IMG/VR virus record: IMGVR_UViG_3300045988_007243
DNA: 64,000 bases
Source of the DNA: a virus
Taxonomy: Duplodnaviria > Heunggongvirae > Uroviricota > Caudoviricetes
Direction: 5' to 3' (one strand)
Shown here one piece after another: positions 2,598 through 32,117 of this stretch. A program made the position numbers and the translations under genes. How positions within the stretch are numbered: position 1 is the stretch's first letter; each line of letters begins with the position of its first letter. Under the pieces are notes generated by a model, which did not search any database, was not told where the DNA came from, and worked only from the letters and a program-made list of their open reading frames with translations.

Positions 2598-3178
2598 TGT
2601 CAGAAGAACATGAGCACATCCAACCAGAAGTTACATTAGTCAAACATTTCGGGAATGTAGAAGGCTGTGTAGCACTTTTTCAGACCAACATTAACTCTCC
2701 AGTCAAACTGTGCAAATTGACGATAAACACCAACAACATCAGTGTATGTGTGAATGAAGAAGTTCAATACTTCAAATTCAATGACAAAGAGGTCGATGCT
2801 GCACTATTGAAATATAGAGCAAATCTTGAAAAAGATATTGACCATAAAGAGGTGGTGAGTCTCTTTGCAGACCTTCATAAGCTTCTTGATAAGGTTGAAA
2901 AAAGAACATACTACATGAATAATGGTTCTATCATTACCACTATGATTTCACCATGTATCTCTGAGCCAATCTTCACAGATGACGGTGCTTACTACATTGT
3001 AGCTTCAGCGGTATCTGATTGGTGGTTAAAGAACAACGCCCTGAAAACAGTGATTGATGCTATCAGAGAGCACATCCCTACATTCAGCCCGTGGAAAGGG
3101 AAAGGTGATGAGTTTATCGCACTATTGAGTGAAGAGAGCAACAAGCGCAGTGCATTACTGCCTAAAAAATACTCTTGA
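2597..3178 (+). CDS. Hypothetical protein
   Basis: Coupled ORF, 193 aa. Confidence 0.5.
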   Translation: MSEEHEHIQPEVTLVKHFGNVEGCVALFQTNINSPVKLCKLTINTNNISVCVNEEVQYFKFNDKEVDAALLKYRANLEKDIDHKEVVSLFADLHKLLDKVEKRTYYMNNGSIITTMISPCISEPIFTDDGAYYIVASAVSDWWLKNNALKTVIDAIREHIPTFSPWKGKGDEFIALLSEESNKRSALLPKKYS

Positions 3179-8292: not shown

Positions 8293-8634
8293 TTAACTGA
8301 TGAATATTTTTTCAGGTTTTACATAGCTGATACGCTGACTTTTTAGCAAGTCATCCCAGATTATTGCCGCAATATGAGAATAACCAGACTCACGCAAGAG
8401 CTTCATTGCTTTACATCTCGTTTCAAATCTGGTTGCGTAGTACTCACTATTCAAAACAGTTTTCTTCCCTTCGTTATCTGTATGGATAATCTGCATTACT
8501 TGAAAGGGGCTGACATCCTCGCCTTTGTTCCATTGCTCAAAGTATTTTAGGCACTGCATAGGTGACATCTTATCGCTTACTTGAGTTGACCAAGATGCGC
8601 CAGCTTTATCGGTAATTACGGTTACATAAGCCAT
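8293..8634 (-). CDS. Hypothetical early protein
   Basis: ORF with conserved leader, 113 aa. Confidence 0.55.
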   Translation of the reverse strand: MAYVTVITDKAGASWSTQVSDKMSPMQCLKYFEQWNKGEDVSPFQVMQIIHTDNEGKKTVLNSEYYATRFETRCKAMKLLRESGYSHIAAIIWDDLLKSQRISYVKPEKIFIS

Positions 8635-8726
8635 TTTTGAATCTCCAGTTTAGGATTTTATTTAGTGGGGAAGGTCATCCCCTCCCCGTTGATTGACAAT
8701 TTACAGATTTTTATCAGGCTTGTCTA
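8635..8726 (-). promoter_or_regulatory. Early promoter-leader cassette, family A
   Basis: TAGACA-N17-TAAATT, leader stem-loop GGGGAGGGGATGACCTTCCCC, RBS GGAGAT. Confidence 0.55.
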
Positions 8727-8957
8727 GTCTTTTTCAATGATAATTTCATATTGACCGTCAACACTGTCGAAATAGATTCCGTCGTCATCTTCTGTCTTAA
8801 AGTAACATTGTATATCATCACTGGCGGGATAGTCTTGCCTTGCTATCTGGCAAACTTGAATAGCATTTTCTTTACTTCCTGTAAACTCTTCAAGCCCTTT
8901 AAAGTCACATGAATGGCCATTACAAATTGAGAGGATGAGATAAACGGTTGTAAGCAT
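8724..8957 (-). CDS. Hypothetical early protein with hydrophobic N-terminus
   Basis: ORF, 77 aa; upstream AGCCCCTTGTAGGGGCT hairpin plus RBS. Confidence 0.45.
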   Translation of the reverse strand: MLTTVYLILSICNGHSCDFKGLEEFTGSKENAIQVCQIARQDYPASDDIQCYFKTEDDDGIYFDSVDGQYEIIIEKD

Positions 8958-9023
8958 GATTTAAGCCCTCTAAAAGCCCCTACAAGGGGCTGATTAGTGT
9001 TTATAAGGTGATTGCATAGGTTT

Positions 9024-9566
9024 TTAGAAAAAGCTCTTTAAATCCTCTTCTGCAATGTTTCCTGTCAGTGTGTCCATGATGTCACAAAAAACCTGAATAC
9101 TGTCGGACTGTTGAACACTTTTAGCAAGAAGTTCCAGAGACTTATCAAGATAGTTTAAATTTGGGTTATCCAGTGAAGGAAGACAAAAAGGCGAAAACAT
9201 AGCATTAAATTCAGTGATGTAAACCTTTTTAATCCAATTTAAATCGAAATATTCTGTAAAACTTGCCACACTCGACATATTATCACAAGAATAATCATCA
9301 TTTAACTCATCTTCTGGAATATCAAGTTCCAAGATGACAATGTTTTGAGTTTTCATCTGAAAAGCTGCGGTGATAGTGGCATTGCCCAGAGCTTGTTGTA
9401 TACCTTCAGATGCTATCTCTTCCGCATCGTCGCCATAGATTTTATTTTCTGGATAAACGTAAAAATTGCCGTCCATATCCGAACAATTCCATGCACCTGA
9501 TGGCTTATCACCGTTATTAATCAGGTTGAGGAAATTTTCTTGAGTAGTTCCGTGATAACATTTCAT
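9024..9566 (-). CDS. Candidate ADP-ribosyltransferase (H-Y-E class, Arr/diphtheria-toxin-like N-terminal YHGT motif)
   Basis: N-terminus MKCYHGTT...GAW...GNFYVYPENKIY resembles the NAD-binding (F)YHGT...W.GFY signature of Arr, diphtheria toxin and exotoxin A; acidic stretch ILELDIPEDE could carry the catalytic Glu; motif-level only. Confidence 0.35.
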   Translation of the reverse strand: MKCYHGTTQENFLNLINNGDKPSGAWNCSDMDGNFYVYPENKIYGDDAEEIASEGIQQALGNATITAAFQMKTQNIVILELDIPEDELNDDYSCDNMSSVASFTEYFDLNWIKKVYITEFNAMFSPFCLPSLDNPNLNYLDKSLELLAKSVQQSDSIQVFCDIMDTLTGNIAEEDLKSFF

Positions 9567-9652
9567 TTTTAGAATCTCCAGTTTAGGATTTAGTGGTAAA
9601 GCTCTTTATCTGAGGCTTAAGTTATCAACTTTTAAGCCCCTTGTAAAGTACT
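9567..9652 (-). promoter_or_regulatory. Early promoter-leader cassette, family B (TTTACA-N17-TAACTT overlapping inverted repeat GGGGCTTA-N13-TAAGCC)
   Basis: Conserved about 70-nt element shared with cassettes at 10365-10450, 11622-11710 and 12005-12090. Confidence 0.55.
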
Positions 9653-9856
9653 TTATTTGTTATTTTTGACAACTTTTAAAACTGCAAGATAGCCTAAGCA
9701 ATAAGAATCACCGAAGAGAGTCCTACCCATGAAAGAATCCTCTTTGATATCCTTTGCAGTGACAGTTTTTTCTACGCCGTGGGAAAGGACTATATCACCA
9801 ACTTTGATATCTTTGATGTGTGTAGTTTCAATGGTTAAACCATTAATAATAGCCAT
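9653..9856 (-). CDS. Hypothetical early protein
   Basis: ORF with family A leader, 67 aa. Confidence 0.5.
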   Translation of the reverse strand: MAIINGLTIETTHIKDIKVGDIVLSHGVEKTVTAKDIKEDSFMGRTLFGDSYCLGYLAVLKVVKNNK

Positions 9857-9949
9857 TTTCAGAATCTCCAGTTTAGGACTTTATTTAGTGGGGAAGGTCA
9901 TTCCCTCCCCGTTGATGTGTAATTTAGACTATCTAAAAATCAGTGTCAA
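9857..9949 (-). promoter_or_regulatory. Early promoter-leader cassette, family A
   Basis: TTGACA-N17-TAAATT, GGGGAGGGAATGACCTTCCCC stem-loop, RBS GGAGAT. Confidence 0.6.
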
Positions 9950-9959
9950 CAAAAATTTT

Positions 9960-10364
9960 TTATAGTTCTGCATAAATTGCATCGCAGATATTACGGAAAT
10001 CGTGATTTGCCAAATTACGCTGCAACCAAGTGGCGAAAAAGTCAGCGATTGCAAAGTTAGCATCATACTCGACAGATAACCACACTTTAACAGCAAATCG
10101 GAACATTTTCAAATCTAACTCTTTATTCATTACCTTAGATTTGCCTAACATGTCGGCCATTTCATGTTGTGCACCGTCTAGCGTGATACCTGCTGCAACG
10201 TCAGTCAATGAGTTTTTTACGCTTTCAACGTCTAAGATAACACTTTGAATCTTCCCAATAATGTTTTGCAGTGTTTTATCTGGTGCTGATGACGTGATAA
10301 CATTAATCCGGTTAACGGTCAAACGTGCTTTTAAAATTGATAATTCACGGTTATTAATAGCCAT
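9960..10364 (-). CDS. Hypothetical early protein
   Basis: Start set at the ATG after RBS GGAGAA (MAINN...); track start 10379 is a TTG inside the conserved leader. Confidence 0.5.
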   Translation of the reverse strand: MAINNRELSILKARLTVNRINVITSSAPDKTLQNIIGKIQSVILDVESVKNSLTDVAAGITLDGAQHEMADMLGKSKVMNKELDLKMFRFAVKVWLSVEYDANFAIADFFATWLQRNLANHDFRNICDAIYAEL

Positions 10365-10450
10365 TTTTAAGTTCTCCAATTTAGGATTTAGTGGTAAAGC
10401 TCTTTATCTGGGGCTTACTTTATCGAACTATAAGCCCCTTGTAAAGTACT
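10365..10450 (-). promoter_or_regulatory. Early promoter-leader cassette, family B
   Basis: TTTACA-N17-TAAAGT with GGGGCTTATAGTTCGATAAAGTAAGCCCC inverted repeat spanning spacer and -10. Confidence 0.55.
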
Positions 10451-10723
10451 TTACATTAAATGCAGTTTTTTGCCTTTTACTATAATGTAACTCGATGCGC
10501 TATTGCTTTGCACATCTTGATAAATTCTGCGTAAACGTCCTTCGTAGTATACTTTCCAACTGGTTGGAATCTTTTTCCCGTATCCTGTAGCAGTTTTTTG
10601 GAGTCCTGCAACTTGCCAATTTAAGATGTGTTGCTCAGCTTGTAAATCATCAAAGTGCATCACACCATTCACATAGTGACGCAGGGTTACGTTTAAAGTG
10701 CGACCGTTGTTAGTAGTATACAT
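10451..10723 (-). CDS. Hypothetical early protein
   Basis: ORF, 90 aa, preceded by RBS-only leader (co-transcribed with the upstream small ORF). Confidence 0.5.
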   Translation of the reverse strand: MYTTNNGRTLNVTLRHYVNGVMHFDDLQAEQHILNWQVAGLQKTATGYGKKIPTSWKVYYEGRLRRIYQDVQSNSASSYIIVKGKKLHLM

Positions 10724-10749
10724 TTTCAGAATCTCCTAGTTTAAGGATT

Positions 10750-10908
10750 TTATTTTGACAGTTCACTAATTAAGACATCAAAGATTATATCATTATCTGC
10801 TACAGTTGCAACACCAGTGATATAATCAATTTCTAAGATAACAACAACTTTCGTACATAAACCGTCATCTATATCATTCCAGACAACTTTATCACCTGCA
10901 CAAAACAT
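10750..10908 (-). CDS. Small hypothetical early protein (52 aa, below the track cutoff)
   Basis: ATG directly after a family A leader and RBS; translation MFCAGDKVVWNDIDDGLCTKVV... read from the sequence. Confidence 0.4.
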   Translation of the reverse strand: MFCAGDKVVWNDIDDGLCTKVVVILEIDYITGVATVADNDIIFDVLISELSK

Positions 10909-11002
10909 TTTTGAATCTCCTAGTTTAAGGACTTTATTTAGTGGGGAAGGTCATTCCCTCCCCGTTGATGTGTAATTTAATCTATCTAAAAACCAGTGTC
11001 AA
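10909..11002 (-). promoter_or_regulatory. Early promoter-leader cassette, family A
   Basis: TTGACA-N17-TAAATT, GGGGAGGGAATGACCTTCCCC stem-loop, RBS. Confidence 0.6.
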
Positions 11003-11331
11003 CAGTTTTGTTTTCGTTTGCTCAATTCTTGAACAATTACAGCGTAGTAGTCTTTTAAGTCACTGACATTTAAAGCATTTATCAGAGAATTATAATCATC
11101 AACTAACTGAAAATTATCTTTGAAGATGTCACTTATCTGATAGGTTTTCGCTTTATATCTGAAGCTCATCTCTAGCCGCTTTATTTGCTCATCACTGAGG
11201 CGCCCTAGAAAGCTTTCTACAAGGTTATTACTAACCTGCTGCGTAATTGCCTTACTTGCTAGATTATAGGCTTTATATGCCTTATATAGCGCGAAAATGG
11301 CAATGATTGCAGTGATACCAGTCATTAACAT
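10999..11331 (-). CDS. Hypothetical membrane protein
   Basis: ORF, 110 aa with N-terminal hydrophobic helix ITAIIAIFALY. Confidence 0.5.
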   Translation of the reverse strand: MLMTGITAIIAIFALYKAYKAYNLASKAITQQVSNNLVESFLGRLSDEQIKRLEMSFRYKAKTYQISDIFKDNFQLVDDYNSLINALNVSDLKDYYAVIVQELSKRKQNC

Positions 11332-11621
11332 GGTGTTTCCTCTTTACGTGATACTTTGCCATTTACAGTTATCTCATAGGATTCTAATAAATCGCTTTTA
11401 GACTTTACAGGACTTTTAAAAGTATTATCGTATATATTAACTTGTAATACAGGTTTTTTATACTCCCTGCAACTGTTCCATAAGCAAATCACTACACGAC
11501 GACCTTTTATTTTGCCGTGTAACCATTCCATAACATCATGCCTATTCCTTGATGTCTCGATAAAATCAATTTTGTTGAGTAATTTGCTCAAATTTTCACG
11601 CACTTGATTTGATAATTTCAT
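11325..11621 (-). CDS. Hypothetical early protein
   Basis: ORF with conserved leader, 98 aa. Confidence 0.5.
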   Translation of the reverse strand: MKLSNQVRENLSKLLNKIDFIETSRNRHDVMEWLHGKIKGRRVVICLWNSCREYKKPVLQVNIYDNTFKSPVKSKSDLLESYEITVNGKVSRKEETPC

Positions 11622-11710
11622 TTTAGAATCTCCTAGTTTAAGGTCTTTATTTGATAAAGCTCTTTATCTGGGGCTTAAGGTATCAGCTTTTAAGCCCCCT
11701 GTAAAGTACT
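11622..11710 (-). promoter_or_regulatory. Early promoter-leader cassette, family B
   Basis: Same conserved element as 9567-9652. Confidence 0.55.
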
Positions 11711-12004
11711 TTATTTGTTAATTTTCAGCTTTGCATAACTTCTCATTGTACGAATGGGGGATGTTAATGCTACGCGTCTAATGTATGCCTTTTTCGTGTA
11801 TACATTTGTCTTCCCGATAGTGTTTACACATGTAAAAAGGTTTATCGGTGAATTTTTTAACTTCAACTGTTTATCAACCTTCACGCCCCACCTTACAGCA
11901 GATTGTTTTCCGTTGTCAACCACTTTCCCGCATAACTTTTTAGCCATAACGCGAGCGTCATCACGAGTCTTTGCAGTAATTACAACGTTTTTGATAATAG
12001 CCAT
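11711..12004 (-). CDS. Hypothetical early protein
   Basis: Start set at the ATG after RBS GGAGAA (MAIIKN...); track start 12019 is in the leader. Confidence 0.5.
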   Translation of the reverse strand: MAIIKNVVITAKTRDDARVMAKKLCGKVVDNGKQSAVRWGVKVDKQLKLKNSPINLFTCVNTIGKTNVYTKKAYIRRVALTSPIRTMRSYAKLKINK

Positions 12005-12090
12005 TTTTAAGTTCTCCAATTTAGGATTGAGTGGTAAAGCTCTTTATCTGGGGCTTACTTTATCGAACTATAAGCCCCTTGTAAAGTACT
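12005..12090 (-). promoter_or_regulatory. Early promoter-leader cassette, family B
   Basis: TTTACA-N17-TAAAGT with GGGGCTTA-N13-TAAGCCCC inverted repeat, immediately after the stop of the upstream gene. Confidence 0.55.
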
Positions 12091-12474
12091 TTATTTGTTA
12101 ATTTTGAAGATAGTTACATAACCATCGCTGCCGATGATTTGTGATGCTCCAGCTTTTTCTACTTGATAGCCCATATTTTCAAGATGGTAAACAGCATCAT
12201 CATAACCATATGCACCGCCCTGATAACGTCTCTTATCACATCTTACTAATACCTTTCCACGTCCTGCCAGTGCATTTAGTACGGCTTTTTCACTTGAAAG
12301 TGTACCATCTAACATGGTTGCCGTGTAATGGTTGATTCTATTCCCGTTTACATCATACTTAAAATTGAATGCGTGAACAACGATAATGTTACCTTTAAAA
12401 TTTTCATCAAGTGACTTCTCCAGTGCGTTGCGAAAGTTGTCTTTGTTGATGAATTTAGGTGCACGATATGCCAT
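12091..12474 (-). CDS. Hypothetical early protein
   Basis: Start set at ATG (MAYRAPKF...) after RBS AGGAGATTCAAAA; track start 12540 lies in the leader. Confidence 0.5.
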   Translation of the reverse strand: MAYRAPKFINKDNFRNALEKSLDENFKGNIIVVHAFNFKYDVNGNRINHYTATMLDGTLSSEKAVLNALAGRGKVLVRCDKRRYQGGAYGYDDAVYHLENMGYQVEKAGASQIIGSDGYVTIFKINK

Positions 12475-12540
12475 TTTTGAATCTCCTAGTTTAAGGTTGT
12501 TGAGCTTGTCGCCCCGTCTGATGCAAATATTAGATAACAC
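12475..12540 (-). promoter_or_regulatory. Promoter (TTGACT-N17-TAATAT) and leader of the first array gene
   Basis: Sigma70-like hexamers read on the minus strand about 35-60 nt upstream of the ATG. Confidence 0.5.
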
Positions 12541-12983
12541 AGTTCAAAGAGTCAAGAAAATTTTTAAAAATATTTTTTGCAAAATTGTAATGAAACGGGT
12601 GCGCGCGACTACCACAAAACAGAACTACAATCAAGAATTATTTTTCAATCCGCTACAAATTTTTCTGTTGACTTTTATTTTCAGATGTGGTAGCCTTGTG
12701 AGAAATGGCGACAGTCCCACCTACCCCCACCTACCTGCACAATTCTAAAATGATTTTTCTTGCCCGACCTGATTTTTCTCTGCACGTTTTGAAAATGAAA
12801 AAACCCTTTGGAGATTACCTGCACAGTTTGAAAATGAATTTTCTCTTTGGAGTTCAAAATTTTCTCTATAGATTCCTCTACAGAACTCTACCTGCACAAA
12901 TCTGAAATGAAAAAGCCCTCCTTACCTGAAAAATTTACCAGATAAGAAAGGCTTAGTCTATTGTGAATATACTACGAAGTTTC
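12541..12983. repeat. Intergenic region with four copies of an about 30-bp motif (minus sense TTTTCATTTTCAAA-N-TGTGCAGGTA) and a GGTAGGTGGG direct repeat
   Basis: ACCTGCACA occurs 3 times plus one variant on the plus strand at 45-70 bp spacing; no ORF. Confidence 0.5.
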
Positions 12984-13769
12984 TTAGTTCTTTGCGTCTA
13001 AGAAGGTAAGTTCTGGTGAAGAGAAGATTAACTCAATATCCTCATCAGTTCTTGCATAGATATAAGCATCTGCATCACTGCCAAATGTTACTGCAATTCT
13101 GTGATTGCTCTTCGACAGGTGGGTAACTAGAGCGTTACTCAGAGACATCTTCTCAACCGGAGGGTTACTTTGATGTATCTTACCTTTTCTTCGTCTGAAG
13201 AGGGTAACTGCATCATTAGTGAACACTACTACACCTGCAAAGTATTCTGGTTCACAGTAGTTCTTCCAACCTGAGAGTAACTTGTGGTACATCTCTCCTT
13301 CATAGACATATAGATAAACATCTACACTCTTCATCACCTGATTGATGATAACTGTGACGGCTTGAGGGTCAAGTCCACCGATACCTGCACCAATCATAGG
13401 TAAACCAACTTTCTTCAACTGGTTAACTTCACAGTATCTGTTAAGCTGTTTCAAAGATGACTCTAAAGCACTGTATCGGGCATCTTTACCAGTATGAAGT
13501 TGGGTGTAAAGGTTAGCTATACGGCCTTGTTTTAAACGTGCTACAGAGAAATTACCTAGTAAATTTTCACAGGGTTTGTGACGAATGCCACCTGCAAACA
13601 GGTAAACTTCTGTGTCAGTATCATACACTTTTGGATAACGCTTAGAAATAGTTGCTGCAATACCTGCACCCATGAAATTCATACAGTTGCAACCATGACC
13701 AATGATATCAAATTTGCCTTTATCAAATGCGTCAAAGATATCACCTTTGATGATTTTTACAATACCCAT
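12984..13769 (-). CDS. Macro domain protein (TARG1/DarG-like ADP-ribose-processing domain) with extra C-terminal domain
   Basis: GDIFD...DIIGHGCNCMNFMGAGIA...VGLPMIGAGIGGLD matches the TARG1-type macro domain pattern (GDLF...CISEDCRMGAGIA...PRIGCGLDRL). Confidence 0.55.
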   Translation of the reverse strand: MGIVKIIKGDIFDAFDKGKFDIIGHGCNCMNFMGAGIAATISKRYPKVYDTDTEVYLFAGGIRHKPCENLLGNFSVARLKQGRIANLYTQLHTGKDARYSALESSLKQLNRYCEVNQLKKVGLPMIGAGIGGLDPQAVTVIINQVMKSVDVYLYVYEGEMYHKLLSGWKNYCEPEYFAGVVVFTNDAVTLFRRRKGKIHQSNPPVEKMSLSNALVTHLSKSNHRIAVTFGSDADAYIYARTDEDIELIFSSPELTFLDAKN

Positions 13770-13970
13770 TTAACATCTCTCCCAAGATTCTTTATCTTCT
13801 GAAGGTTTTACACGTTGCCCTTCGTGGTCTACCCAGATACACCCACAACCTTCACAGATTACTGGCATTGCATAACCAGCTTTAAAGTCATCTTCAGTGA
13901 TAAGACCTTTTAAGTCACCTGTATCACGTCCGAACATTTCGATAGAACAGTCTTTACAGAAGTCAGCCAT
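13770..13970 (-). CDS. Small Cys-rich hypothetical protein (possible zinc ribbon)
   Basis: CKDC...CEGCGC motifs, 66 aa. Confidence 0.4.
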   Translation of the reverse strand: MADFCKDCSIEMFGRDTGDLKGLITEDDFKAGYAMPVICEGCGCIWVDHEGQRVKPSEDKESWERC

Positions 13971-13982
13971 ATAATATATACC

Positions 13983-14210
13983 TTATAGTTCAGTTTCTCG
14001 TAATTCTTTACCTTCATCATAGAAGCATTTATAGAATGTGTCTATAGAGATTCTGGCAAAGGTGAGGTCTTCAAAGTATTCCTCTGGAGTTGTCCCTGTA
14101 AAACTAAAACTGTCGAGGCTGTAAAATGGTATCACTGTGTCGTGACTCACGAAAACACATGCTGACGTGACTTCTCCAGTATCTTTGTCAATTACCTCTA
14201 GAGCTTTCAT
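13983..14210 (-). CDS. Hypothetical protein
   Basis: ORF, 75 aa. Confidence 0.4.
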   Translation of the reverse strand: MKALEVIDKDTGEVTSACVFVSHDTVIPFYSLDSFSFTGTTPEEYFEDLTFARISIDTFYKCFYDEGKELRETEL

Positions 14211-14511
14211 AGCTTACCTTTTCGGTTAGTTCATATAAATCAACATGCTCAATACTGTCGATGTTGATATCAATCTTTTTGAAACGTTCTATCACTTCGT
14301 TGTCAGTCATCCATATCAGACACCAATGATTCTGGATGGATTCTTCAAGAAGGTCAACACAATCTTTAAAAGTTTTTGTATCACTTCTTGTTCCTACCAC
14401 TGCGATTGTTCCATATAACCACTTACCGTTGCCATAGGTCACTTGTGCTACACCAACCTCTTTATCTTTCTCATAGTAAACGGCTACAAAATCTCTTCCA
14501 TTAATCTGCAT
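14188..14511 (-). CDS. Hypothetical protein
   Basis: ORF, 107 aa. Confidence 0.45.
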   Translation of the reverse strand: MQINGRDFVAVYYEKDKEVGVAQVTYGNGKWLYGTIAVVGTRSDTKTFKDCVDLLEESIQNHWCLIWMTDNEVIERFKKIDINIDSIEHVDLYELTEKVSYESSRGN

Positions 14512-15931: not shown

Positions 15932-16513
15932 CTAAATCATCCTCACTTTCAAACTTTCTGCACTTATAGAGTTAGTTCCAAAACCACGCATAAAAAGCAA
16001 GTAATCATGCTCTATATTGTGCCTTAAAAACATCTCAGTAGGTATTCTCTGAGATTCACCTCTCGCTGTCAAGAGTCCAATTGCAGCATGGTTAGCAATT
16101 GCATCAATAATATTGAAAACATACGTTGGTTTTGCTCTTACAGAGTCAAGCAAATTAGTGTACTGTGAAAATGACCCATCAATCAATTCTGTTGAGCAAT
16201 CTTCGTGATTAAAATTTGTAAGAACACCATCAATATCTGCTAAGATGAGGTTACCTTTTTCTACAAGGTCTTTATTGACTATGACTAAGCTGTCACGCCT
16301 TACACCTATAGTTTGTCCAGTCTCTTTATCTACAACATTCACAATTGTCTCTGATGTGTGGAACTCTTCGAGTGAACATACAACTTCTCTTGCGGTGTCT
16401 TCAAAATCCCTACACTGTTCTGGAGTCCATACACAGGAATCAAGACCTAACTCATGAGGGTGCAAGTCGTAAGCATGGCACAGTACTTCATCAGACTTTC
16501 TTAATTTTTTCAT
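15932..16513 (-). CDS. HAD-superfamily phosphatase candidate (nucleotidase-like)
   Basis: LILADIDGVLTNF matches HAD motif I (DxDGT/V); GLLTARGE resembles motif II. Confidence 0.45.
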   Translation of the reverse strand: MKKLRKSDEVLCHAYDLHPHELGLDSCVWTPEQCRDFEDTAREVVCSLEEFHTSETIVNVVDKETGQTIGVRRDSLVIVNKDLVEKGNLILADIDGVLTNFNHEDCSTELIDGSFSQYTNLLDSVRAKPTYVFNIIDAIANHAAIGLLTARGESQRIPTEMFLRHNIEHDYLLFMRGFGTNSISAESLKVRMI

Positions 16514-17039
16514 GGTTTACCTTAGAAATGTTTGTTGCAAATTCACATTGAGCAATCACTTTCATATTGTTATAGACATCTTGAGAATATTTCTTAGCTT
16601 TAGGAATTTTGTATGAATACCCAGCATTATAAGATGCTAAAACTTTTTGTAAAGTCTTCTTTGACTTTGGTTGACCATGTACCTTCGTCCAAAACTCAAG
16701 CTCTTTGTGAGTTTCCTTAGCAGCATAATCAAAGTCTTTTAAGAGTTTCTTTTTAGCCACATTAGGACTAATTTTGTTACGCTTTACAACAGTCTTCAAG
16801 TGATTCTGGAAAATACCATAGTCATGGGTCTTTTTATTCTCTACCTTCAGACCTAACTCTGACTCTTGTAAGGCTATAGCAGCTAGAGTGATACCCCAAC
16901 CTTTACCCATATTATTCTCACCATACTGGTAAGCTTTTAACATGTTTACTTTTTGGCTAATTGATAGCTCTGGGCAGTCAACTGCATAAGATAAGTGTGC
17001 TGTAAACATTAAGCACAAACCTAGAATCAATTTCTTCAT
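16491..17039 (-). CDS. Secreted lytic transglycosylase (SLT domain) with signal peptide
   Basis: N-terminal signal peptide MKKLILGLCLMFTAHLSYA; SLT motifs QESELG, YGIFQ, SYNAG. Confidence 0.55.
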   Translation of the reverse strand: MKKLILGLCLMFTAHLSYAVDCPELSISQKVNMLKAYQYGENNMGKGWGITLAAIALQESELGLKVENKKTHDYGIFQNHLKTVVKRNKISPNVAKKKLLKDFDYAAKETHKELEFWTKVHGQPKSKKTLQKVLASYNAGYSYKIPKAKKYSQDVYNNMKVIAQCEFATNISKVNHEKIKKV

Positions 17040-21270: not shown

Positions 21271-23052
21271 TTAAAGCTGCTTGTCAATATTATTTCGAAT
21301 ATCACCAAGAGTTGTGTAACCGAACTGCTCAGAGTCACTAAAGACTAAACGTAAAGCACAAGCTGGGTGGTCAAGTACATCTGCAAAACTCTGGAATCCA
21401 TAGCCATCTACAGCTTTCAGCTTATCACCATCCCACATAGGTGCTACACCACCAAAGGCAGATTTCTTAACACCACTATCTGTTTTAGGGTCTTTTGCAA
21501 GCATAATCTCTTTACCACCAATGCTTGCCAGAGTTGCTTTGACAGCAAATGCAAAGGTGTCACGAGTCATGTACTGGTAAGTGTAAGAACCTACACCAAA
21601 CACTACGTTAGAGCTTGCAAAACCCATTTCATACAAACGCTTCAGTATTTCGTTTGCACGTTCCAACGTGATAGAGTCGCCATAAATAAGCCCGATATGC
21701 TCATCCAGTACTTTAAAACCTTTAGAGTTGATAGTTCCCCCAAAGATGTTATACAGTGTCTTGATAGCTCCATCAATCTCCGCTACAGGACGTGTTACAA
21801 CGTTTGCAGAACCAACCATATAAGCATTTTTCAACAGCACTGTATCAGCAACTTCAAAGTCTTCTCTGTCAACAACCATTTCGTAGCCTTCTGACAGTAG
21901 CCATCCAGCAATACCATAGTTGATGTTTTCAAGCTTCATGTTCAGAACAGCATTCAACATTGTGTCGCTGGCTTCCAGCTTGCTTAAGTGTTCGTAATAA
22001 GCCTTTTTAGCACACTCTAAATGGATTGCTTTGTATCCTGTGACAATATGTACAGGGTCTCCAGAGTCAGGGCGAATTACCAGTTTACCATCACGTTCCA
22101 TAATTTCTTTACGGAGTGCTGGTAAGATTTCTGACACAGTTCTCCAGAAGTTATAAGTATCTGAAACAATACTTGCAATACCAGTTGGGTAAGTTTCTGT
22201 TAAGAAACGACGGAAGGTTTGTAACTCACCTTTAAAGCGTCTTTCTTCTTCAATCAACTCATTACCACCTTCCCAAGCAATGTTTGCACACATTACAGAG
22301 TGCTCAGTGGCTGGTACAGAACTACCAATATCAGAGATTAGGTAAGACTGACCATAGATTCGTTTAGCCGTGTATACAGCAGGGAAACTATCAGTTCCTT
22401 TAAAGCTGGTTAAGTGACCTACAGCATTAAATGCGTCATCAGTAAAGCCGGACATACCACGCATAGCAAAGTCATGGCACTGATAAGGCAAATGTAAGTC
22501 GTTGTCACAAGTAAGGTCAGACCACTTCTTACAGATACGTTTGTAGTGCAATGCAATAGTTGCAATGGTACAAGCCTTCCAAATCTCAGCAGAGAAAGCA
22601 TCTTCCAGATATCCCGCTACCCAATGGAAACCTGAAACAGTGTTCTGGAAGACAATCATTGGTACACGCATAGGAACAACTGTGCCTTCTTCTACAGCGT
22701 AGACTTCAACTGGTAGATAACCTAAGTCGTGGAGTGCTTCCCAATGTTCTCGACCAATAGCATCTTTGCCCAGAACACCGTTCATGATTTCTAAGATTTC
22801 GTCAATTGCTTCTTTTTTGTCACGTTCAAAGAAAGTGGCGTTCCAGTGGTCTATCAAGTAATCTTTAACGAAACGTTGAATACCAAAAGCTACTACACCA
22901 TCAATTGCTAAAGGGCTGTTAAACCATTTATCGCTACGTGGTGTCAGGTTCAGCATAAGGTACTGTGTGGCATCTGGATACTGATATATATGTGATGCCT
23001 TGTAAGCATCTGCGTTTAAACCTGCTGGTACTGCATAAAGTGATTTAGTCAT
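21271..23052 (-). CDS. nadV: Nicotinamide phosphoribosyltransferase family protein (NadV/NAMPT-like; possible Namat of a NARP1-type pathway)
   Basis: N-terminal ADAYKASHIYQYP matches the NAMPT DSYK.THY.QYP motif; length 593 aa; adjacent to a Prs-family gene. Confidence 0.75.
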   Translation of the reverse strand: MTKSLYAVPAGLNADAYKASHIYQYPDATQYLMLNLTPRSDKWFNSPLAIDGVVAFGIQRFVKDYLIDHWNATFFERDKKEAIDEILEIMNGVLGKDAIGREHWEALHDLGYLPVEVYAVEEGTVVPMRVPMIVFQNTVSGFHWVAGYLEDAFSAEIWKACTIATIALHYKRICKKWSDLTCDNDLHLPYQCHDFAMRGMSGFTDDAFNAVGHLTSFKGTDSFPAVYTAKRIYGQSYLISDIGSSVPATEHSVMCANIAWEGGNELIEEERRFKGELQTFRRFLTETYPTGIASIVSDTYNFWRTVSEILPALRKEIMERDGKLVIRPDSGDPVHIVTGYKAIHLECAKKAYYEHLSKLEASDTMLNAVLNMKLENINYGIAGWLLSEGYEMVVDREDFEVADTVLLKNAYMVGSANVVTRPVAEIDGAIKTLYNIFGGTINSKGFKVLDEHIGLIYGDSITLERANEILKRLYEMGFASSNVVFGVGSYTYQYMTRDTFAFAVKATLASIGGKEIMLAKDPKTDSGVKKSAFGGVAPMWDGDKLKAVDGYGFQSFADVLDHPACALRLVFSDSEQFGYTTLGDIRNNIDKQL

Positions 23053-23097
23053 CTTTTAATATCTCTCAAAATGGGGCTTTTAAGCCCCTATAAACTT

Positions 23098-23979
23098 TCA
23101 ATCAAGGTTTGCTACAGTAACTTGGCCGTAATGTGTTAAGCCACGGTCTTTAGCTTCACCTAAAGAGTTTGTAGTGTAAATATGGTCGATACCATTGTCA
23201 AGAAGGTTTTCAACATCTTTAGAGAAGATACCATGTGTTACATAAAGCTCCACACGTTTTGCACCTGCTTCACGTAGGTGTTTAGCTGCCTCTATGAAGG
23301 TTCGACCACCATCACAGATATCATCCAGAATCATGACGGTTTTATCTGCCAAATCAACATCATCAAGGATTCGCATACCAGTAATTTCACCAGTCTTAAG
23401 GTTACGTACTTTAGACATTGTGATGTATGGTTTATCCACCTCTTTAGCAGTCTCTGCAATCTTCTTAGAAGCACCTGCATCTGGGGCTACTAAATAATCA
23501 ATCAAAGGGTCATTCGCATAGTGGACTGCAATTTCCTTTTGAGGAATACTTTGGAAGCAGTTAAACAGGTTATCTGGAACGTAACTGTGAGGGTCAACTG
23601 CACAGACTGCACCAAATCCCATTGCATTTACCTGTTTAGCAAAAACCTTTAAAGCTGCTGCGTCGCCTTTAAACATGTGACGGTCATAACGTGCATTTGG
23701 TAAGTAGTAAAAGATGACAGTCTTTAAAGCATAATCATGAGGAATTAAATCATCAATTGCTTCTTTAGCAAGTGCCACAGCAAACAATGTATCCTTATCA
23801 TAACCTTTTACAATCATAATCACATTGTTGATGGATGATGCTGCATAAGCAGTGAAATCAACAAACTCTGGCGAAAAGTGTCCACCAATCTCACCAGAAG
23901 GAAATTGGATGATGTTAAACTCTTCTTCATGAGTCCCTTTAGTTGGTGAATGAACTGTAACACGGATAGATGTTTTCAT
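23098..23979 (-). CDS. prs: Ribose-phosphate pyrophosphokinase family protein (Prs-like; possible Adps of a NARP1-type pathway)
   Basis: VIFYYLPNARYDRH (like VIPYFGYARQDRR), LVAPDAGASKK, MILDDICDGGRTF...GAKRVELYVTHGIFS (like VLVDDMIDTGGTL...GAKRVFAYATHPIFS); start moved to the ATG after the upstream stop. Confidence 0.7.
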   Translation of the reverse strand: MKTSIRVTVHSPTKGTHEEEFNIIQFPSGEIGGHFSPEFVDFTAYAASSINNVIMIVKGYDKDTLFAVALAKEAIDDLIPHDYALKTVIFYYLPNARYDRHMFKGDAAALKVFAKQVNAMGFGAVCAVDPHSYVPDNLFNCFQSIPQKEIAVHYANDPLIDYLVAPDAGASKKIAETAKEVDKPYITMSKVRNLKTGEITGMRILDDVDLADKTVMILDDICDGGRTFIEAAKHLREAGAKRVELYVTHGIFSKDVENLLDNGIDHIYTTNSLGEAKDRGLTHYGQVTVANLD

Positions 23980-23990
23980 AGTTTTCTCTC

Positions 23991-24269
23991 TCAATCAAAG
24001 GTTATGTTTGTTACTGCCATTGCAGATTTGCATTTTGCAGGGTCTACAACGTGATAAAGTACACTACAGTTACCTGTGCTGTCTGGTACAGGTTTGACCC
24101 ATTGATGCTTTATAGTTGGCTCTCCTAAATCTTTGTAAGAGCCATCTGTAAAATTGTTTACCATCTCAAGTGCAATTGGTTCTGGGACATGACCACGTAT
24201 CATGTACATCTCACAGCCGTTACCACCTTCACTCACTAATGGTAGAATCTCCCACTTTTCTTTAGCCAT
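23991..24269 (-). CDS. Hypothetical protein
   Basis: ORF, 92 aa. Confidence 0.45.
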   Translation of the reverse strand: MAKEKWEILPLVSEGGNGCEMYMIRGHVPEPIALEMVNNFTDGSYKDLGEPTIKHQWVKPVPDSTGNCSVLYHVVDPAKCKSAMAVTNITFD

Positions 24270-26793: not shown

Positions 26794-27351
26794 TTATTTT
26801 TTCTTACAATTGTCAAAATGATATCGAGTCATGTTACCAGCACCACCAGTCATACCACAATGAGGGCAAGTTTTCTTTTTCTTTGGCTTTTTTCCGGCTT
26901 CTGACATCTTCTTCCTTGTTTCTATAGACCTTTTACAACCTTTTGATTTTGTATTGCCTATTTGAGATTCTCCTAATCGTCTTCGATGTTCTTCAGTGAA
27001 AACCCTACCTTTATTCACAATAGATAAAGCTTTCGAGTTCAAAGCTCTTACCTTTTCATAGTCTCTGGATGATATTTTCCTATCTAGGCCATCATGAGCT
27101 AACCTGTTCCATGCAAACCATAACTTATGATTGTTTGGATACATCTTAACCAGTAATTTATGAGCTATATAATGCTCTCTAGGTGTAAGCAAAGCAATAT
27201 TATCTCCACTAATTTTATCTCCACCTAGACATACTGGTATGATATGGTGTCTTTCATAACCCTTACCTTGACATTTGTAGTATGTAAGAGGCACACCCCT
27301 TTCAGAATGTGCCTTCTTAATAATTGCATTATATATTAGTTCGTAATTCAT
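26794..27351 (-). CDS. Free-standing HNH homing endonuclease with NUMOD3-like repeats
   Basis: YERHHIIPVCLGGDKISGDNIALLTPREHYIAH HNH core; C-terminal FTEEHRRRLGESQIGNTKSKG repeat and basic zinc-finger tail; sits immediately downstream of nrdD. Confidence 0.65.
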   Translation of the reverse strand: MNYELIYNAIIKKAHSERGVPLTYYKCQGKGYERHHIIPVCLGGDKISGDNIALLTPREHYIAHKLLVKMYPNNHKLWFAWNRLAHDGLDRKISSRDYEKVRALNSKALSIVNKGRVFTEEHRRRLGESQIGNTKSKGCKRSIETRKKMSEAGKKPKKKKTCPHCGMTGGAGNMTRYHFDNCKKK

Positions 27352-27358
27352 TTGTATG

Positions 27359-28306
27359 CTACATAGAAACCCTATCCTTAATTTCTGCCATCTTAGCGTC
27401 ATTCATTCGAGACTGACCTTTAATTTTTGTGAATGACAAGTACCCGCACACCCTGTTAATCACAGAGATATCATGTGAATGGCAAACCTCACATTCTTCA
27501 ACATCAGCCTTTGGTCTGTTACCACAATGTTCACAGATTGCTAAGTCAAAGTTAAGCCCTTGATAAAAACCTTTCAACATCCCTCTTGTAATACAACTTT
27601 TAAGTGCTGGTAAGTTTTCTGGGTTAGCTACCCTTACATACTGGATTCTGCCACCTCTACAGATATGGAAGAATGGCTCTTCTAATTCCTGCTTCTCAAA
27701 TGGTGAGATGTTTGCTGCAACATTCATATGGAAACTGTTTGTAAAGTATTCCTTGTCAGAAACGCCTTTAATAACACCAAACATATCTCTGAACTGTTTT
27801 AGCTGAGTTCCACACAATGACTCTGCTGGAGTGCCATATACTGCATACAGGAAGCCATCTTCATTCTTAAACTCTTCAGTTTTCATGTTAATGTATGCCA
27901 GAACATCGTATGCAAAACTGGAACTTCCAACTTCATGAAGTCGTTTACCTTCAGCAAGAACAGATAACTCATCAAGAGCAGTAACCCCAAAAGAAGCTGT
28001 GAAGGACTTCACAATATCCCAACCAACCTTGTCAGTAGGCTTCTTAGTCCCTTTATACAGACCACCTTGTGTGAATGCAAGAGGGTTAGAACTTGCTGGC
28101 ATATTGGCAATCATTTCGTAACGTTTCTTATGGAAGCTGCGAATCATTTCTAGGTACTTATCAAGCTCTTTCCAGAAATCTAAACCATTCTCTTTAGAAT
28201 ACTGGTAAATCATTGGTAAGTTCAAAGATACAGCACCAATGTTAGCACGACCTACATAAAACTCTTCACCATATTCGTTATGGTATGGTGATAAAAATGC
28301 TCTACA
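27359..28306 (-). CDS. nrdD: Anaerobic ribonucleoside-triphosphate reductase, exon 2
   Basis: In-frame continuation CRAFLSPYHNEYGEEFYVGRANIGAVSLNLP... matches NrdD (E. coli PMGCRSFL...GVVSLNLPRIA); C-terminal CEHCG...CEVCHSHD...RVCGYLS glycyl-radical region. Confidence 0.8.
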   Translation of the reverse strand, partial: CRAFLSPYHNEYGEEFYVGRANIGAVSLNLPMIYQYSKENGLDFWKELDKYLEMIRSFHKKRYEMIANMPASSNPLAFTQGGLYKGTKKPTDKVGWDIVKSFTASFGVTALDELSVLAEGKRLHEVGSSSFAYDVLAYINMKTEEFKNEDGFLYAVYGTPAESLCGTQLKQFRDMFGVIKGVSDKEYFTNSFHMNVAANISPFEKQELEEPFFHICRGGRIQYVRVANPENLPALKSCITRGMLKGFYQGLNFDLAICEHCGNRPKADVEECEVCHSHDISVINRVCGYLSFTKIKGQSRMNDAKMAEIKDRVSM

Positions 28307-29048
28307 CTTGTTGTTCAGGTAAGTTCGCTAAGCTTACCCCGCTTTATTCAAGCTGCTTACTGTCGCCAGTAAGTCCAGACTATATCTTCTACTTATTTCT
28401 AAGTAGCGTACCATTTCGAGTCGCTTGACCCTACACCGCTACATTCATCACGGTTAGTCGTTCGGCATTTAGATGTATTCAAACTCATATTCGAAGTTAT
28501 TATGCTCTTTTACACCCTTCAATATTGAAGAGATGGTCTTGCGATTGTGTCCAAGTATATTGGATAACTCTCGTATTGACTTAGTAACAATAACTTCCTT
28601 TGTCACTTTGTGTGTGGCTTTCACGGCATATGAACGCTTGTGGAACTTGTAGCACCCGTTCTCATAACCTTCTTTAGCATTCTCAGAATGAGTACCCCAT
28701 TCTAAGTTGGATGCGTGGTTATTTAGTTTGTTATCGTCCTTATGTTTTACAATTGGAAGATTATTTGGGTTAGGTACATATTTCTCAGCAACTAACCTGT
28801 GGACATACATGTCACGATTCTTCTTACCGTAAAACCTCACTTTCATATACCCAGTGTTGGATTTCCACTGCGTAAGCTCTACACCATTTTCCCTAAAGAC
28901 TTTTCCATCTTCAGTGACGTGATAGTTTGGCATGTAAGACTCCTATGTTGTATAGTTTCTTACATCGTACATCATTTAGCACAGGATTGTCTACATCTGT
29001 AGAGTTTCCCTGTTTAGGCACGTTTTAGATGAGCTATAGAGCCTGTTA
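28307..29048 (-). other. Group I intron (td-like core) interrupting nrdD
   Basis: Minus-strand sense begins UAACAGGC...CCUAAACAGGGAAACUCUACAGAUGUAGACAAUCCUGUGCUAAAUG and ends ...GUAGGGUCAAGCGACUCGAAAUG...AGAUAUAGUCUGG...GGGGUAAGCUUAGCGAACUUACCUGAACAACAAG, closely matching recalled T4 td intron core elements; exon 1 ends with U, intron ends with G. Confidence 0.75.
28469..28933 (-). CDS. Intron-encoded HNH homing endonuclease
   Basis: MPNYHVTEDGKVF...SNTGYMKVRF...HRLVAEKYVPNP...NLEWGTHSEN pattern typical of HNH_3-family intron endonucleases; lies wholly within the nrdD intron with its own AGGAG RBS. Confidence 0.7.
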   Translation of the reverse strand: MPNYHVTEDGKVFRENGVELTQWKSNTGYMKVRFYGKKNRDMYVHRLVAEKYVPNPNNLPIVKHKDDNKLNNHASNLEWGTHSENAKEGYENGCYKFHKRSYAVKATHKVTKEVIVTKSIRELSNILGHNRKTISSILKGVKEHNNFEYEFEYI

Positions 29049-30245
29049 ACCCATCGGCGAAATAACCTTGCCAGAACGCTCAAAAGCCTCTGCTACAGCA
29101 CCATGACCAGATACACTTAAGAAATCTGGATACATAGCTTTAGAGCAACACTCAATAGCTTTACTGTACAGGTGACCTTGACAGATATTTTCATCATGTC
29201 TCTTCTGGTCATAAATATAAACCAGTTTAGGGAATACAACAGGCTTCTTACTCTTACCTTGTCCATTCATGCGAACATCAAGAATGGTGTTTGCAATCAT
29301 GTATTGCAGTCGGTTGTCTTCATTAGACATATCTGAGTCGAGCAACCCAAATGTTAAAGTTGTGAATGCGAAATCACCACGGCTGCAAGGTACAGTGTTC
29401 AGTTTCATTTCAAGTGACTGAAAACCTTGAGTTAATTCAATCTGTAGCTGCTCCATGACATAATTATGGTAATGTTCTTTAGGAATACCATAAGATGCTG
29501 CTTTCTCAGCATGATAGCGTAGAGACTTCTTAGCATACGGTACAAGCACCTTATCAATCTCTGCTAAAGTAAATCCACCAAATTGCTGTGCAGTTGCTGA
29601 AAGAACTACATCACCAATAACCTGTAAGGCTGACAGCACAGACTTCGGTTCACAGTATTCGATGCCAGACATCTCAAAGCCACCTTTCAGTACTTTACCA
29701 ATGTCAAACAAGCAACAGTTAATGCCGCCAAAAATCAGGTCTCTTAAATCGTGGATATAGATAAACCCTTTTTCAATGGCTTCAAGTTCCTCTGGTGTTA
29801 AATGGTACTGCTTAAAGATTTCTTTAGTCAGGTAACCACGAATAATTGAACCTTTTGTAGAAATTAAACTGCTGTCAAAGTTAGCGTTTTCACGGTCACC
29901 TAAGAAGAGCGTGTCTCTAGTCTTTTGGTAAAGCTCATCCCAATTTTGAGCAACCTCTTTCCGGTAATTTCTGTATGTTGAGTAAGACTCATAAATCTCG
30001 TGATTGACTTCTGCCAAAGCACCCTCAACAATGCTGTGAATATCATTGACTGAGATGAGTAAATTATTCTGCTTAGTGGACTTTACCAGAATCCTCATAA
30101 ATGCTGACTCAAGAGCTTGGGTAACATCTGGTGGGAGTTCTTTATATCCAACCCTGTTAGCTGACTTAGTTACTGCTGCTAAAACTTTTTTGATATCAGG
30201 TTCTTCAAGTGAGCCATTCTTTTTAATAATCTGTACTTTGTTCAT
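29049..30245 (-). CDS. nrdD: Anaerobic ribonucleoside-triphosphate reductase, exon 1
   Basis: N-terminal NrdD region ending ...VISPMG; the track stop codon (29046-29048) is the first triplet of the intron. Confidence 0.8.
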
Positions 30246-30735: not shown

Positions 30736-31808
30736 TAAGGAACCTCTAAAAATCCACTATTCAAATCATCTACAACAGTATTCAATAGGTACGCACCGTT
30801 CTGTTGCTCCTGATTAGCATTCTGCTCTTTATCAATTTCCATCTTCTTAATCATGTACTTCAAAGGTGGTTCTTTAGGAGCTACAAAATCTCTGGGAATG
30901 CCAAACATATCATACAGTGGGGCAGCATTATAGTAAACCCACTCATGAAGAAGCTTTGTATTTAAGCCAACTACAGCACGTCCTTCGGAGAAGATATAAT
31001 ACGACCATTTCTCTTCACTTTCAACTACTTCATCTAAGATTACTTTAATCTCTGGAAGAATTTGTTGAAAAGCTTTCTGCCACTCATCATCTCTTAAAGT
31101 TTCTTTTAAAACTTCAATATCAATTTTAGTGTGAAGGATTTCGTCAAGCATAATTTTCTGGACAGCTTGAGCAATACCCTGAAATTTATCTTGAGCATCA
31201 AGTGCAAAAGTACATGCAAAGGATGCCATAAAAGATATACCTTCAAGTGCAGTCACTGCAAACAGCCCTTTCAGAATCACTTTATGGAAGTGTAAAGGGT
31301 CTTTGTCCAGAAGTGAGTCGCGCACATAACTCAGACGATAGTTTATACCTTCATCCAGTAATTCTTCAAGAACACGATTCACAGTTTTTAATCGGTCTTG
31401 TACAGCAACATTCTGGTTAATCTCATCTAAGATTGTTTCAGGGTTTTTAATACATTGCCTTACAATCTCTGAGTAAGTAAGAGCATGTAGGTTTTCAATC
31501 TCAGACTGCTTCATAATTGCAGTTGCATAGATGTCATCAGAGATAAATGGTGCAAAGGCAAATGCCAAACTCTTAGCAACTTGAGTATCTGCTTCCCACT
31601 GCCACTTAAGAATCTCAAGCATTACACCTGACATTGATGCTGGTACACTCTCAAAATCAAGACGTGATTGTTCAAAAGGGAACTCATCTTCTGACCAATC
31701 TTGTGCTTTTTGTTGTTTATAAAGCTCAAAGATTTTTGGGTAGTGTTTATTAAGTGAGTCAAAAGTTTTTCTCTCACCACCTAAAAAGATTGGGTGCTGG
31801 TTAATCAT
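30735..31808 (-). CDS. nrdB: Ribonucleotide reductase class Ia beta subunit
   Basis: Ferritin-like region with SEIENLHALTYSEIV; start set at the ATG (MINQHP) with AAGGAG RBS and ATGA overlap to the upstream gene. Confidence 0.8.
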   Translation of the reverse strand: MINQHPIFLGGERKTFDSLNKHYPKIFELYKQQKAQDWSEDEFPFEQSRLDFESVPASMSGVMLEILKWQWEADTQVAKSLAFAFAPFISDDIYATAIMKQSEIENLHALTYSEIVRQCIKNPETILDEINQNVAVQDRLKTVNRVLEELLDEGINYRLSYVRDSLLDKDPLHFHKVILKGLFAVTALEGISFMASFACTFALDAQDKFQGIAQAVQKIMLDEILHTKIDIEVLKETLRDDEWQKAFQQILPEIKVILDEVVESEEKWSYYIFSEGRAVVGLNTKLLHEWVYYNAAPLYDMFGIPRDFVAPKEPPLKYMIKKMEIDKEQNANQEQQNGAYLLNTVVDDLNSGFLEVP

Positions 31809-32062
31809 AGCGTGATTTCTCCTTTCTTTATCATTTCTAAGGCTTGTTTTCTGTCTAAAACTTCCCAATTTTCTTTGTTGAACATCTCATAAGGTCTTGC
31901 GTAGATTTTACCATCTGCTGTAGAGATGTAAGAGATACCAGCAACCCATGAGTCATCCTTTTGTTTTATCATCATGTCTGTGCTACTCACATAGTACATC
32001 GTTTTCCGAGGCTTGTGGAGCAAGTATATAGGTCGCTCATGTTTTTCTATTAAATCTTTCAT
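31805..32062 (-). CDS. Small hypothetical protein between nrdA and nrdB
   Basis: Start set at the internal ATG (MKDLIEK) with GGAGAG RBS. Confidence 0.4.
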   Translation of the reverse strand: MKDLIEKHERPIYLLHKPRKTMYYVSSTDMMIKQKDDSWVAGISYISTADGKIYARPYEMFNKENWEVLDRKQALEMIKKGEITL

Positions 32063-32117
32063 GGTCTCTCCAAAGTTATTTTTAGAGGGTCTTTTACGAC
32101 CCTCATAGTTGTTAAAA

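Follow-up and report, generated by a model that had tools for sequence, protein, structure and literature searches.

Within the 64,000-nucleotide Caudoviricetes sequence analyzed here (IMG/VR record IMGVR_UViG_3300045988_007243; hereafter the window), two open reading frames (ORFs), ORF A (9024..9566) and ORF B (12984..13769), are tentatively best explained as two independent genes acting in NAD+ and ADP-ribose (ADPR) metabolism, ORF B as an Adpp-like macro-domain hydrolase and ORF A as a stand-alone protein of ADP-ribosyltransferase (ART) fold. The original prediction had read ORF A as a candidate ART in an early gene array and ORF B as a TARG1/DarG-like macro protein, the two together forming a writer/eraser pair. 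Both ORFs and the quoted motifs were found exactly as described, and both ORFs lie on the minus strand, a point absent from that description; the motifs are no chance features, as they fall on invariant or near-invariant columns in the alignments of both protein families. Overall, the observation was confirmed and its interpretation partly supported. The genome carrying both ORFs is a FelixO1-like Felixounavirus: the region 8500-14500 has ~91% identity with Escherichia phage HY02, and among the 246 phage records that it matches most belong to Escherichia or Salmonella phages or carry the name Felixounavirus.

ORF B (261 aa, with the stretches HGCNCMNFMGAGIA and PMIGAGIGGLD) adds a new, dispersed form with two domains to a family for which a function (Adpp) was established recently. 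The Adpp of Vibrio phage Gary (KNV71_gp137) converts ADPR-1''-phosphate to ADPR, so that NARP1 rebuilds NAD+ (Osterman et al., bioRxiv 10.64898/2026.01.28.702374). ADPR-1''-phosphate is the product of aRES, a RES-domain NAD+ phosphorylase defense; the aRES systems cloned came from E. coli, Klebsiella and Enterobacter. The effect was lost when any one of the three genes was inactivated, and the construct tables include Adpp N27A and H24A mutants (bioRxiv 10.64898/2026.01.28.702374). NARP1 itself (Adps and Namat) was defined experimentally in phage Bas63 (genes 79-80), a Felixounavirus and hence congeneric with the phage described here. Both NARP1 enzymes are encoded within the window at 21271-23994 on the minus strand, the first as an Adps-like gene with a Prs fold (23098..23994) and the second as a Namat-like gene with a NAMPT/NAPRTase fold (21271..23052), which is the probable downstream user of ADPR.

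The H25/N28/Q90 residue set of ORF B, the presence of NARP1 in the window and the linkage between macro genes and NARP1 in Vibrio and Pakpunavirus phages combined point to an Adpp-like role. On this sequence-level evidence ORF B is most likely Adpp-like, and it would help the phage to rebuild NAD+ after a bacterial immune attack. ORF B shares 28-31% identity with the Gary, Pakpunavirus and Acinetobacter Adpps (expectation value, E, 7e-15 to 3e-21); Adpp residues H24 and N27, mutation of which abolished the anti-aRES activity, align to ORF B H25 and N28, both invariant in the family, and the Adpps of the published table (Table S1) carry an N-[LVA]-[YH]-x-Q motif that matches N-L-Y-T-Q in ORF B. 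In Vibrio phage 184E37-2 a macro homologue lies between Adps and Namat, and in a Pakpunavirus the gene order is Adps - x - Namat - x - macro. The Adps-macro-Namat operon of phage 184E37-2 spans 31392-34333 and has the gene order of the published Gary NARP1-AP. Mechanistically, ORF B would strip the 1''-phosphate from the ADPR-1''-phosphate made by aRES to give ADPR, which the phage Adps and Namat would then convert to NAD+, the whole amounting to a dispersed NARP1-AP. Among the three functions originally offered for the two genes, feeding ADP-ribose to the NAMPT-like/Prs-like module was the closest to the function shown for Adpp in NARP1-AP. The sequences with their conservation, the predicted folds, the gene contexts and the published Adpp biochemistry are the established part of this explanation; the ORF B substrate, and whether ORF A binds NAD+ or is catalytic, are what we infer within it.

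The macro domain occupies residues 1-160 of ORF B (13290..13769, minus strand), belongs to the DarG/TARG1/Poa1p clade and carries the H25/N28/Q90 active-site set, which Adpp and SCO6735 have in common with it. Pfam Macro (PF01661) matches residues 25-141 at 30 bits (vs. a gathering score of 22), and the AlphaFold2 model built from 26 homologues has a mean predicted local distance difference test score (pLDDT) of 90.5 and a predicted template modeling score (pTM) of 0.86. Residues H25, G26, N28, C29, N86-L-Y-T-Q90, P124, G127 and G129 are invariant in the macro family. PHROGs places ORF B in phrog_335, 'phosphatase', and its relatives are annotated as 'putative phosphatase' or 'O-acetyl-ADP-ribose deacetylase'. 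The remaining residues 161-261 (12984..13289, minus strand) form a confidently modeled beta-rich domain of ~100 residues that is confined to Ounavirinae-type relatives, has no homologue in Pfam, NCBIfam or PDB sequences and bears no likeness to DarG; this domain may supply a second specificity. Directly upstream, a 66-aa minus-strand ORF (13770-13970) with zinc-ribbon-like CxxC...CxxC spacing stops exactly at the macro gene start, suggesting translational coupling, and the annotation of phage GEP101 shows the same arrangement.

Several points weigh against assigning ORF B an Adpp activity. The published survey took in macro genes only where they lay no more than two genes from NARP1, and ~12 ORFs (7.5 kb) separate ORF B from Namat; the C-terminal 100 residues of ORF B are missing from the Table S1 Adpps, and the best NCBIfam and PADLOC label for ORF B is DarG. 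SCO6735, with the same Q/N type of active site, cleaves DarT-modified thymidine (PMC9411070). Additionally, the Adpp table lists no Ounavirinae phage, nor any Escherichia, Salmonella or Erwinia phage, so the macro protein of Ounavirinae falls outside the published Adpp assignment. Finally, NARP1-AP makes up 15% of 859 NARP1 pathways, implying ~129 genomes, a number far exceeded by the macro family, which is present in ~2,700-3,000 of 50,697 phage records; membership in the macro family therefore does not fix the substrate. As a separate observation, T4-like phages such as RB3 (NC_025419.1, 58336-58797) encode a single-domain H/N/Q macro protein beside the vs gene, with 34-40% identity to Adpp. 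Since T4-like phages with such a macro protein are not known to carry NARP1, a NARP1-independent role of the family is suggested there.

ORF A (minus strand) founds a large phage family for which no Pfam, NCBIfam, PADLOC or literature record was found, and it is the more novel of the two proteins. It is 180 aa long, very acidic (isoelectric point 4.05) and starts MKCYHGTTQENFLNLINNGDKPSGAWNCSDMDGNFYVYPENKIY; by itself it has no match in Pfam, NCBIfam or PADLOC, PHROGs assigns it to phrog_3303 (function unknown), and the literature on ARTs in Felixounavirus or Pakpunavirus yielded nothing on the family. Close homologues were seen only in Felixounavirus-like phages. Run against 1.84 billion representative proteins, the family profile recovered 332 members at E<=1e-3 and 145 at <=1e-10, almost all of 160-215 aa, and 376 phage records hold the family. 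Three single divergent members used as queries found nothing in IMG/VR, a sub-alignment search found eight contigs of ~80-91 kb, most of them Ounavirinae-like, and contig look-ups for divergent members gave pieces of 1-5 kb without informative neighbors in four of five cases and Erwinia Ounavirinae genomes in the fifth. Separately, ORF A was considered as aRad1, the inhibitor of aRES; the two are unrelated, aRad1 being ~70 aa long, and the window ORFs include no homologue of aRad1.

An alignment of 123 diverse ORF A homologues, with a mean column identity of 21%, defines the signature H5-G-T / W26-x-x-S29 / Y36-x-[WY]38 / D91-x-S93-C-x-N-M97. H5, W26, D91 and S93 are conserved in 100% of these sequences, Y36 in 99%, G6 in 98% and T7 in 93%, S29 and M97 in >=93%, C94 and N96 in the 89-99% range, and W or Y occupies position 38 in 89%. 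The H-G-T, aromatic and acidic motifs that first drew attention to ORF A are thus the conserved core of the family, and judging from the predicted model the protein probably has an ART-like fold. H5 lies in predicted strand 2-8 within H-G-T, a tyrosine (Y36) follows ~30 residues on, as in the H-Y-E clade of ARTs (diphtheria toxin/PARP/Tpt1), and the invariant D91, in a segment modeled with pLDDT ~40, is a candidate for the catalytic Glu/Asp that this clade has at the start of beta5. This H5/Y36/D91 set would have a precedent, because an H / Y-or-F / D(E) set serves phage ARTs of the AcrIF11 type (PMC12421852). Additionally, the Pfam PARP domain was weakly matched by 21 of the 123 members (best E 0.0024; other families matched at most two members each), residues 2-21 of the family consensus match PARP profile positions 51-70 (E 0.15), and three of the four NCBIfam matches of the consensus are ARTs, namely AcrIF11 (E 0.015, residues 1-71) and Tpt1 (E 0.016 and 0.15).

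Combined, these results describe a probable, if unproven, ART-like fold with an H-Y-D signature; genuine ART catalysis is held with more doubt, on the lower side of an even chance. In such an enzyme ORF A would take a minimal diphtheria-toxin/Tpt1-like ART fold, bind NAD+ through H5-G6-T7, S29 and Y36/Y38, and use D91 as the catalytic acid, and it might ADP-ribosylate a host target for takeover or anti-defense, as AcrIF11 and T4 Alt/Mod do. Against it, no match of ORF A to a curated ART family in Pfam or NCBIfam reaches threshold. Structure prediction, first suggested for both proteins, gave a confident macro model for ORF B; for ORF A the results were an AlphaFold2 model (16 sequences) with pLDDT 69 and pTM 0.70, in which the weakest segments (31-42 and 90-104) hold the conserved motifs and pLDDT falls to 40-45 exactly at Y36 and D91/S93, and an uninformative Foldseek search of BFVD that matched uncharacterized proteins alone (E>=1e-3). 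An hhalign comparison with the KptA/Tpt1 family profile aligned 19 columns, the HGT motif alone, with a probability of 6.6%. ORF A was also considered as a Tpt1/KptA enzyme and rejected on this short alignment together with the missing RNA lobe and tetrad arginines.

The first alternative to be weighed is that ORF A is not an ART at all, being instead a non-catalytic NAD+/ADPR-binding protein or inhibitor on an ART-like scaffold, or a protein of another fold, such as a degenerate PIN-like alpha/beta fold, with a convergent likeness at HGT. A faint resemblance to the archaeal Nob1 PIN domain covers residues 52-128, in matches as weak as those to ARTs, and the sub-threshold profile matches and poorly modeled motif segments given above fit this alternative as well; the conserved Asp at the end of beta1 and the further acidic residues of a PIN-domain nuclease were not found in ORF A. 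This alternative is somewhat unlikely.

A serious rival, and the main alternative to the Adpp-like role, concerns ORF B. It may be an anti-DarT2 protein, an orphan DarG/SCO6735-like glycohydrolase clearing thymidine ADP-ribose from phage single-stranded DNA instead of or besides any Adpp activity, with a C-terminal domain that perhaps binds DarT, by analogy with chimallivirus AdfM. The 'TARG1/DarG-like' fold label is correct, because the ORF B family profile matches TARG1 (E 3e-17), SCO6735 (5e3b; 7e-17), Poa1p (8e-16) and DarG (4e-15). In SCO6735 a glutamine (Q85) sits at the lysine position and is locked by Asn27, and cleavage of DarT-made thymidine-ADP-ribose is abolished by Q85A and nearly abolished by N27S (PMC9411070). 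Both counterparts, Q90 and N28, are invariant in the ORF B family, an equivalence read through the TARG1 alignment.

The active site itself speaks against a closer likeness to DarG. TARG1 K84 aligns with ORF B Q90 and D125 with G131, in the single sequence and the family profile alike. The structural clade originally named was right; the K84/D125 dyad and the DarG lysine are absent. Since N28 and Q90 are both invariant, ORF B belongs to a lysine-less branch, and not to the K-type enzymes TARG1, DarG and AdfM. Two specific assignments were rejected on these grounds, a TARG1/OARD1-type enzyme (the catalytic Lys84/Asp125 dyad being Q90 and G131 in ORF B) and a DarG/AdfM-type enzyme (the catalytic lysine, K80 in DarG and K78 in AdfM, being replaced by the invariant Gln; PMC9411070, PMC13309987). 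A full-length match to DarG was not found either: the NCBIfam antitoxin_DarG model covers positions 2-150 of 338, the macro part alone, at 54 bits vs. a cut-off of 250, and the C-terminal domain resembles nothing, DarG included. Furthermore, the relatives of ORF B in other lineages lie within NARP1 operons, and one of them was shown to be an ADPR-1''-phosphate phosphatase. An anti-DarT2 role is rated as unlikely, and the Adpp-like role is preferred.

In the region of the two genes, the proposed 'early array' was borne out: promoter/hairpin cassettes of 75-100 nt repeat before successive small genes from ~8600 to 12100. One such promoter/hairpin/ribosome-binding-site cassette, with promoter-like hexamers, lies directly upstream of ORF A (9553..9667, minus strand), and the repeat families of which it is made (D1, D2 and D3) precede successive genes of the array. 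D1/D2 repeats of 74-99 nt stand before minus-strand small genes at 9557-9667, 10355-10465, 11652-11725 and 11995-12105, D4 repeats of 80 nt with a GGGGAAGG...CCCTCCCC hairpin are found at 8649-8728, 9872-9951 and 10925-11004, and a common ribosome-binding-site/start context, 'CATTTT..GAATCTCC.GTTTAGGA', occurs at least six times. The cassettes at 8600-12105 look like duplicated promoter-terminator units of an early region. Located 30 nt past the ORF B stop, a terminator-like hairpin (12913..12954, minus strand) with a stem of 17 pairs and then a T-rich stretch (TTTCATTTCA) sets the macro gene apart from the array. Beside it, the non-coding DNA that comes after the macro gene (12700-12983) holds three ~30-nt direct repeats, 'TACCTGCACA.TT..AAAATGA', at 12732, 12816 and 12889 with a spacing of 73-84 nt, which may be a regulatory element or a small RNA.

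A broader association between the two genes was also considered, namely that the ORF A family is a new ART-fold clade travelling with the phage NAD+-reconstitution toolkit and acting in the NAD+ arms race, as a three-part counter-defense with NARP1-AP. ORF A might, for example, inactivate host defense effectors of the NADase or ART type by ADP-ribosylation, or it might process an immune molecule derived from NAD+ or ADPR, and NARP1-AP would recycle the by-products of its action; were this true, the locus would be an NAD+ counter-defense system rather than a generic host-takeover toxin. In keeping with it, NARP1 and an Adpp-type macro gene are present in every sampled cultured ORF A lineage, with verification in Felixounavirus, Kolesnikvirus, Wc4-1, Pakpunavirus and the ~137-kb Vibrio phages; in Otagovirus, ORF A is present in UNO-G1W1, and the Adpp table lists congeners of this phage. 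NARP1 is reported in ~4% of phages. The sampled lineages are not independent, because Vandenendeviridae (the Pakpunavirus family) has been described as related to Andersonviridae (the Felixounavirus family), and a three-part system of this kind is considered improbable.

The dedicated writer/eraser pair of the original prediction, in which the ART modifies a target and the macro protein reverses the modification or protects the phage, fares worst and is very improbable: although the two genes share a strand 3.5-5 kb apart throughout Ounavirinae (in the order Adps - Namat - rIIA - rIIB - ... - macro - (4-5 kb) - ORF A), and a macro gene is found in every sampled cultured ORF A lineage or in its genus, the genes are separate transcription units (the macro gene ends in front of a strong terminator-like hairpin, a promoter cassette of its own precedes ORF A and ~10 genes lie between), they are unlinked outside Ounavirinae (12.5 kb apart on opposite strands in Vibrio phage 184E37-2, where the ORF A homologue is VPH184E372_0138, and far apart in Pakpunavirus, as PaoP5_162 and the Adpp listed as gene 17 in Table S1), no common partner gene is conserved (in an all-against-all BLAST across lineages, ORF A neighbors are conserved only within Ounavirinae), and the macro gene is linked to NARP1 instead and belongs to a family ~8x more widespread (~3,000 vs. 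376 phage records).

If ORF B is an Adpp, model Felixounaviruses, including Bas63, the phage in which NARP1 was discovered, already carry a dispersed NARP1-AP, and the published adjacency-based counts underestimate the phages able to defeat RES-type NAD+ phosphorylase defenses. The C-terminal domain together with the Q-type site could even make ORF B a dual-purpose eraser, acting on ADPR-1''-phosphate as well as on DNA- or RNA-linked ADP-ribose. For ORF A, a real ADP-ribosyltransferase activity would make the family a large group of enzymes (332 clusters at 50% identity) and a candidate new enzymatic anti-defense or host-takeover factor; the family occurs in well-studied and therapeutic phages, including FelixO1, Bas63 and PAK_P1/PaP1/PaoP5.

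Other features were noted elsewhere in the window and in related phages. The anaerobic ribonucleotide reductase gene nrdD appears to be split on the minus strand, with its N-terminal part at 29046-30245 and its C-terminal part at 27359-28225, the ~820-bp gap between them (28226-29045) holding a separate ORF of 154 aa (28469-28933), and a minus-strand ORF with a NUMOD3 motif, probably a homing endonuclease (26794-27402), overlaps the end of the C-terminal part. In Erwinia Ounavirinae, a DUF4326 protein is encoded just after rIIB (699-1268 of one Erwinia phage locus), and a gene of like position and size in phiEa104 is annotated 'NrdA-like'; the syntenic ORF of the window (16491-17039) has no Pfam match.

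Compared with known systems, ORF B is nearest to the Adpp of phage Gary, a member of the same macro family; the motifs H-x-x-N-C...MG.GIA, N-[LVA]-[YH]-x-Q and P.IG.G occur in both, and the genomes encoding either protein alike encode NARP1. Adpp adjoins NARP1 within two genes, whereas ORF B lies about a dozen genes away; the Table S1 Adpps are ~150-170 aa long and ORF B carries its 100-residue beta domain in addition, and the Gary protein is closer to the T4-like macro proteins than to ORF B. DarG and AdfM use the catalytic lysine that ORF B lacks, DarG has a DarT-binding domain with no homologous domain in ORF B, and human TARG1/OARD1 depends on a dyad of which ORF B keeps neither residue. 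SCO6735, DarG and AdfM remove ADP-ribose from DarT-modified DNA thymidine, and the ORF B locus is without a DarT context. For ORF A, Tpt1/KptA enzymes differ in having an N-terminal RNA-binding lobe, in place of which ORF A starts at the HGT motif, and an R-H-R-R tetrad, whereas the ORF A family has no conserved Arg. The closest analogue is AcrIF11, the best NCBIfam match of the ORF A family consensus, a phage- and plasmid-encoded diphtheria-toxin-like ART that ADP-ribosylates Cas8f; like ORF A it is a small stand-alone protein, and it combines a helical region with an H / Y-or-F / D(E) set whose putative counterpart in ORF A is H5/Y36/D91.

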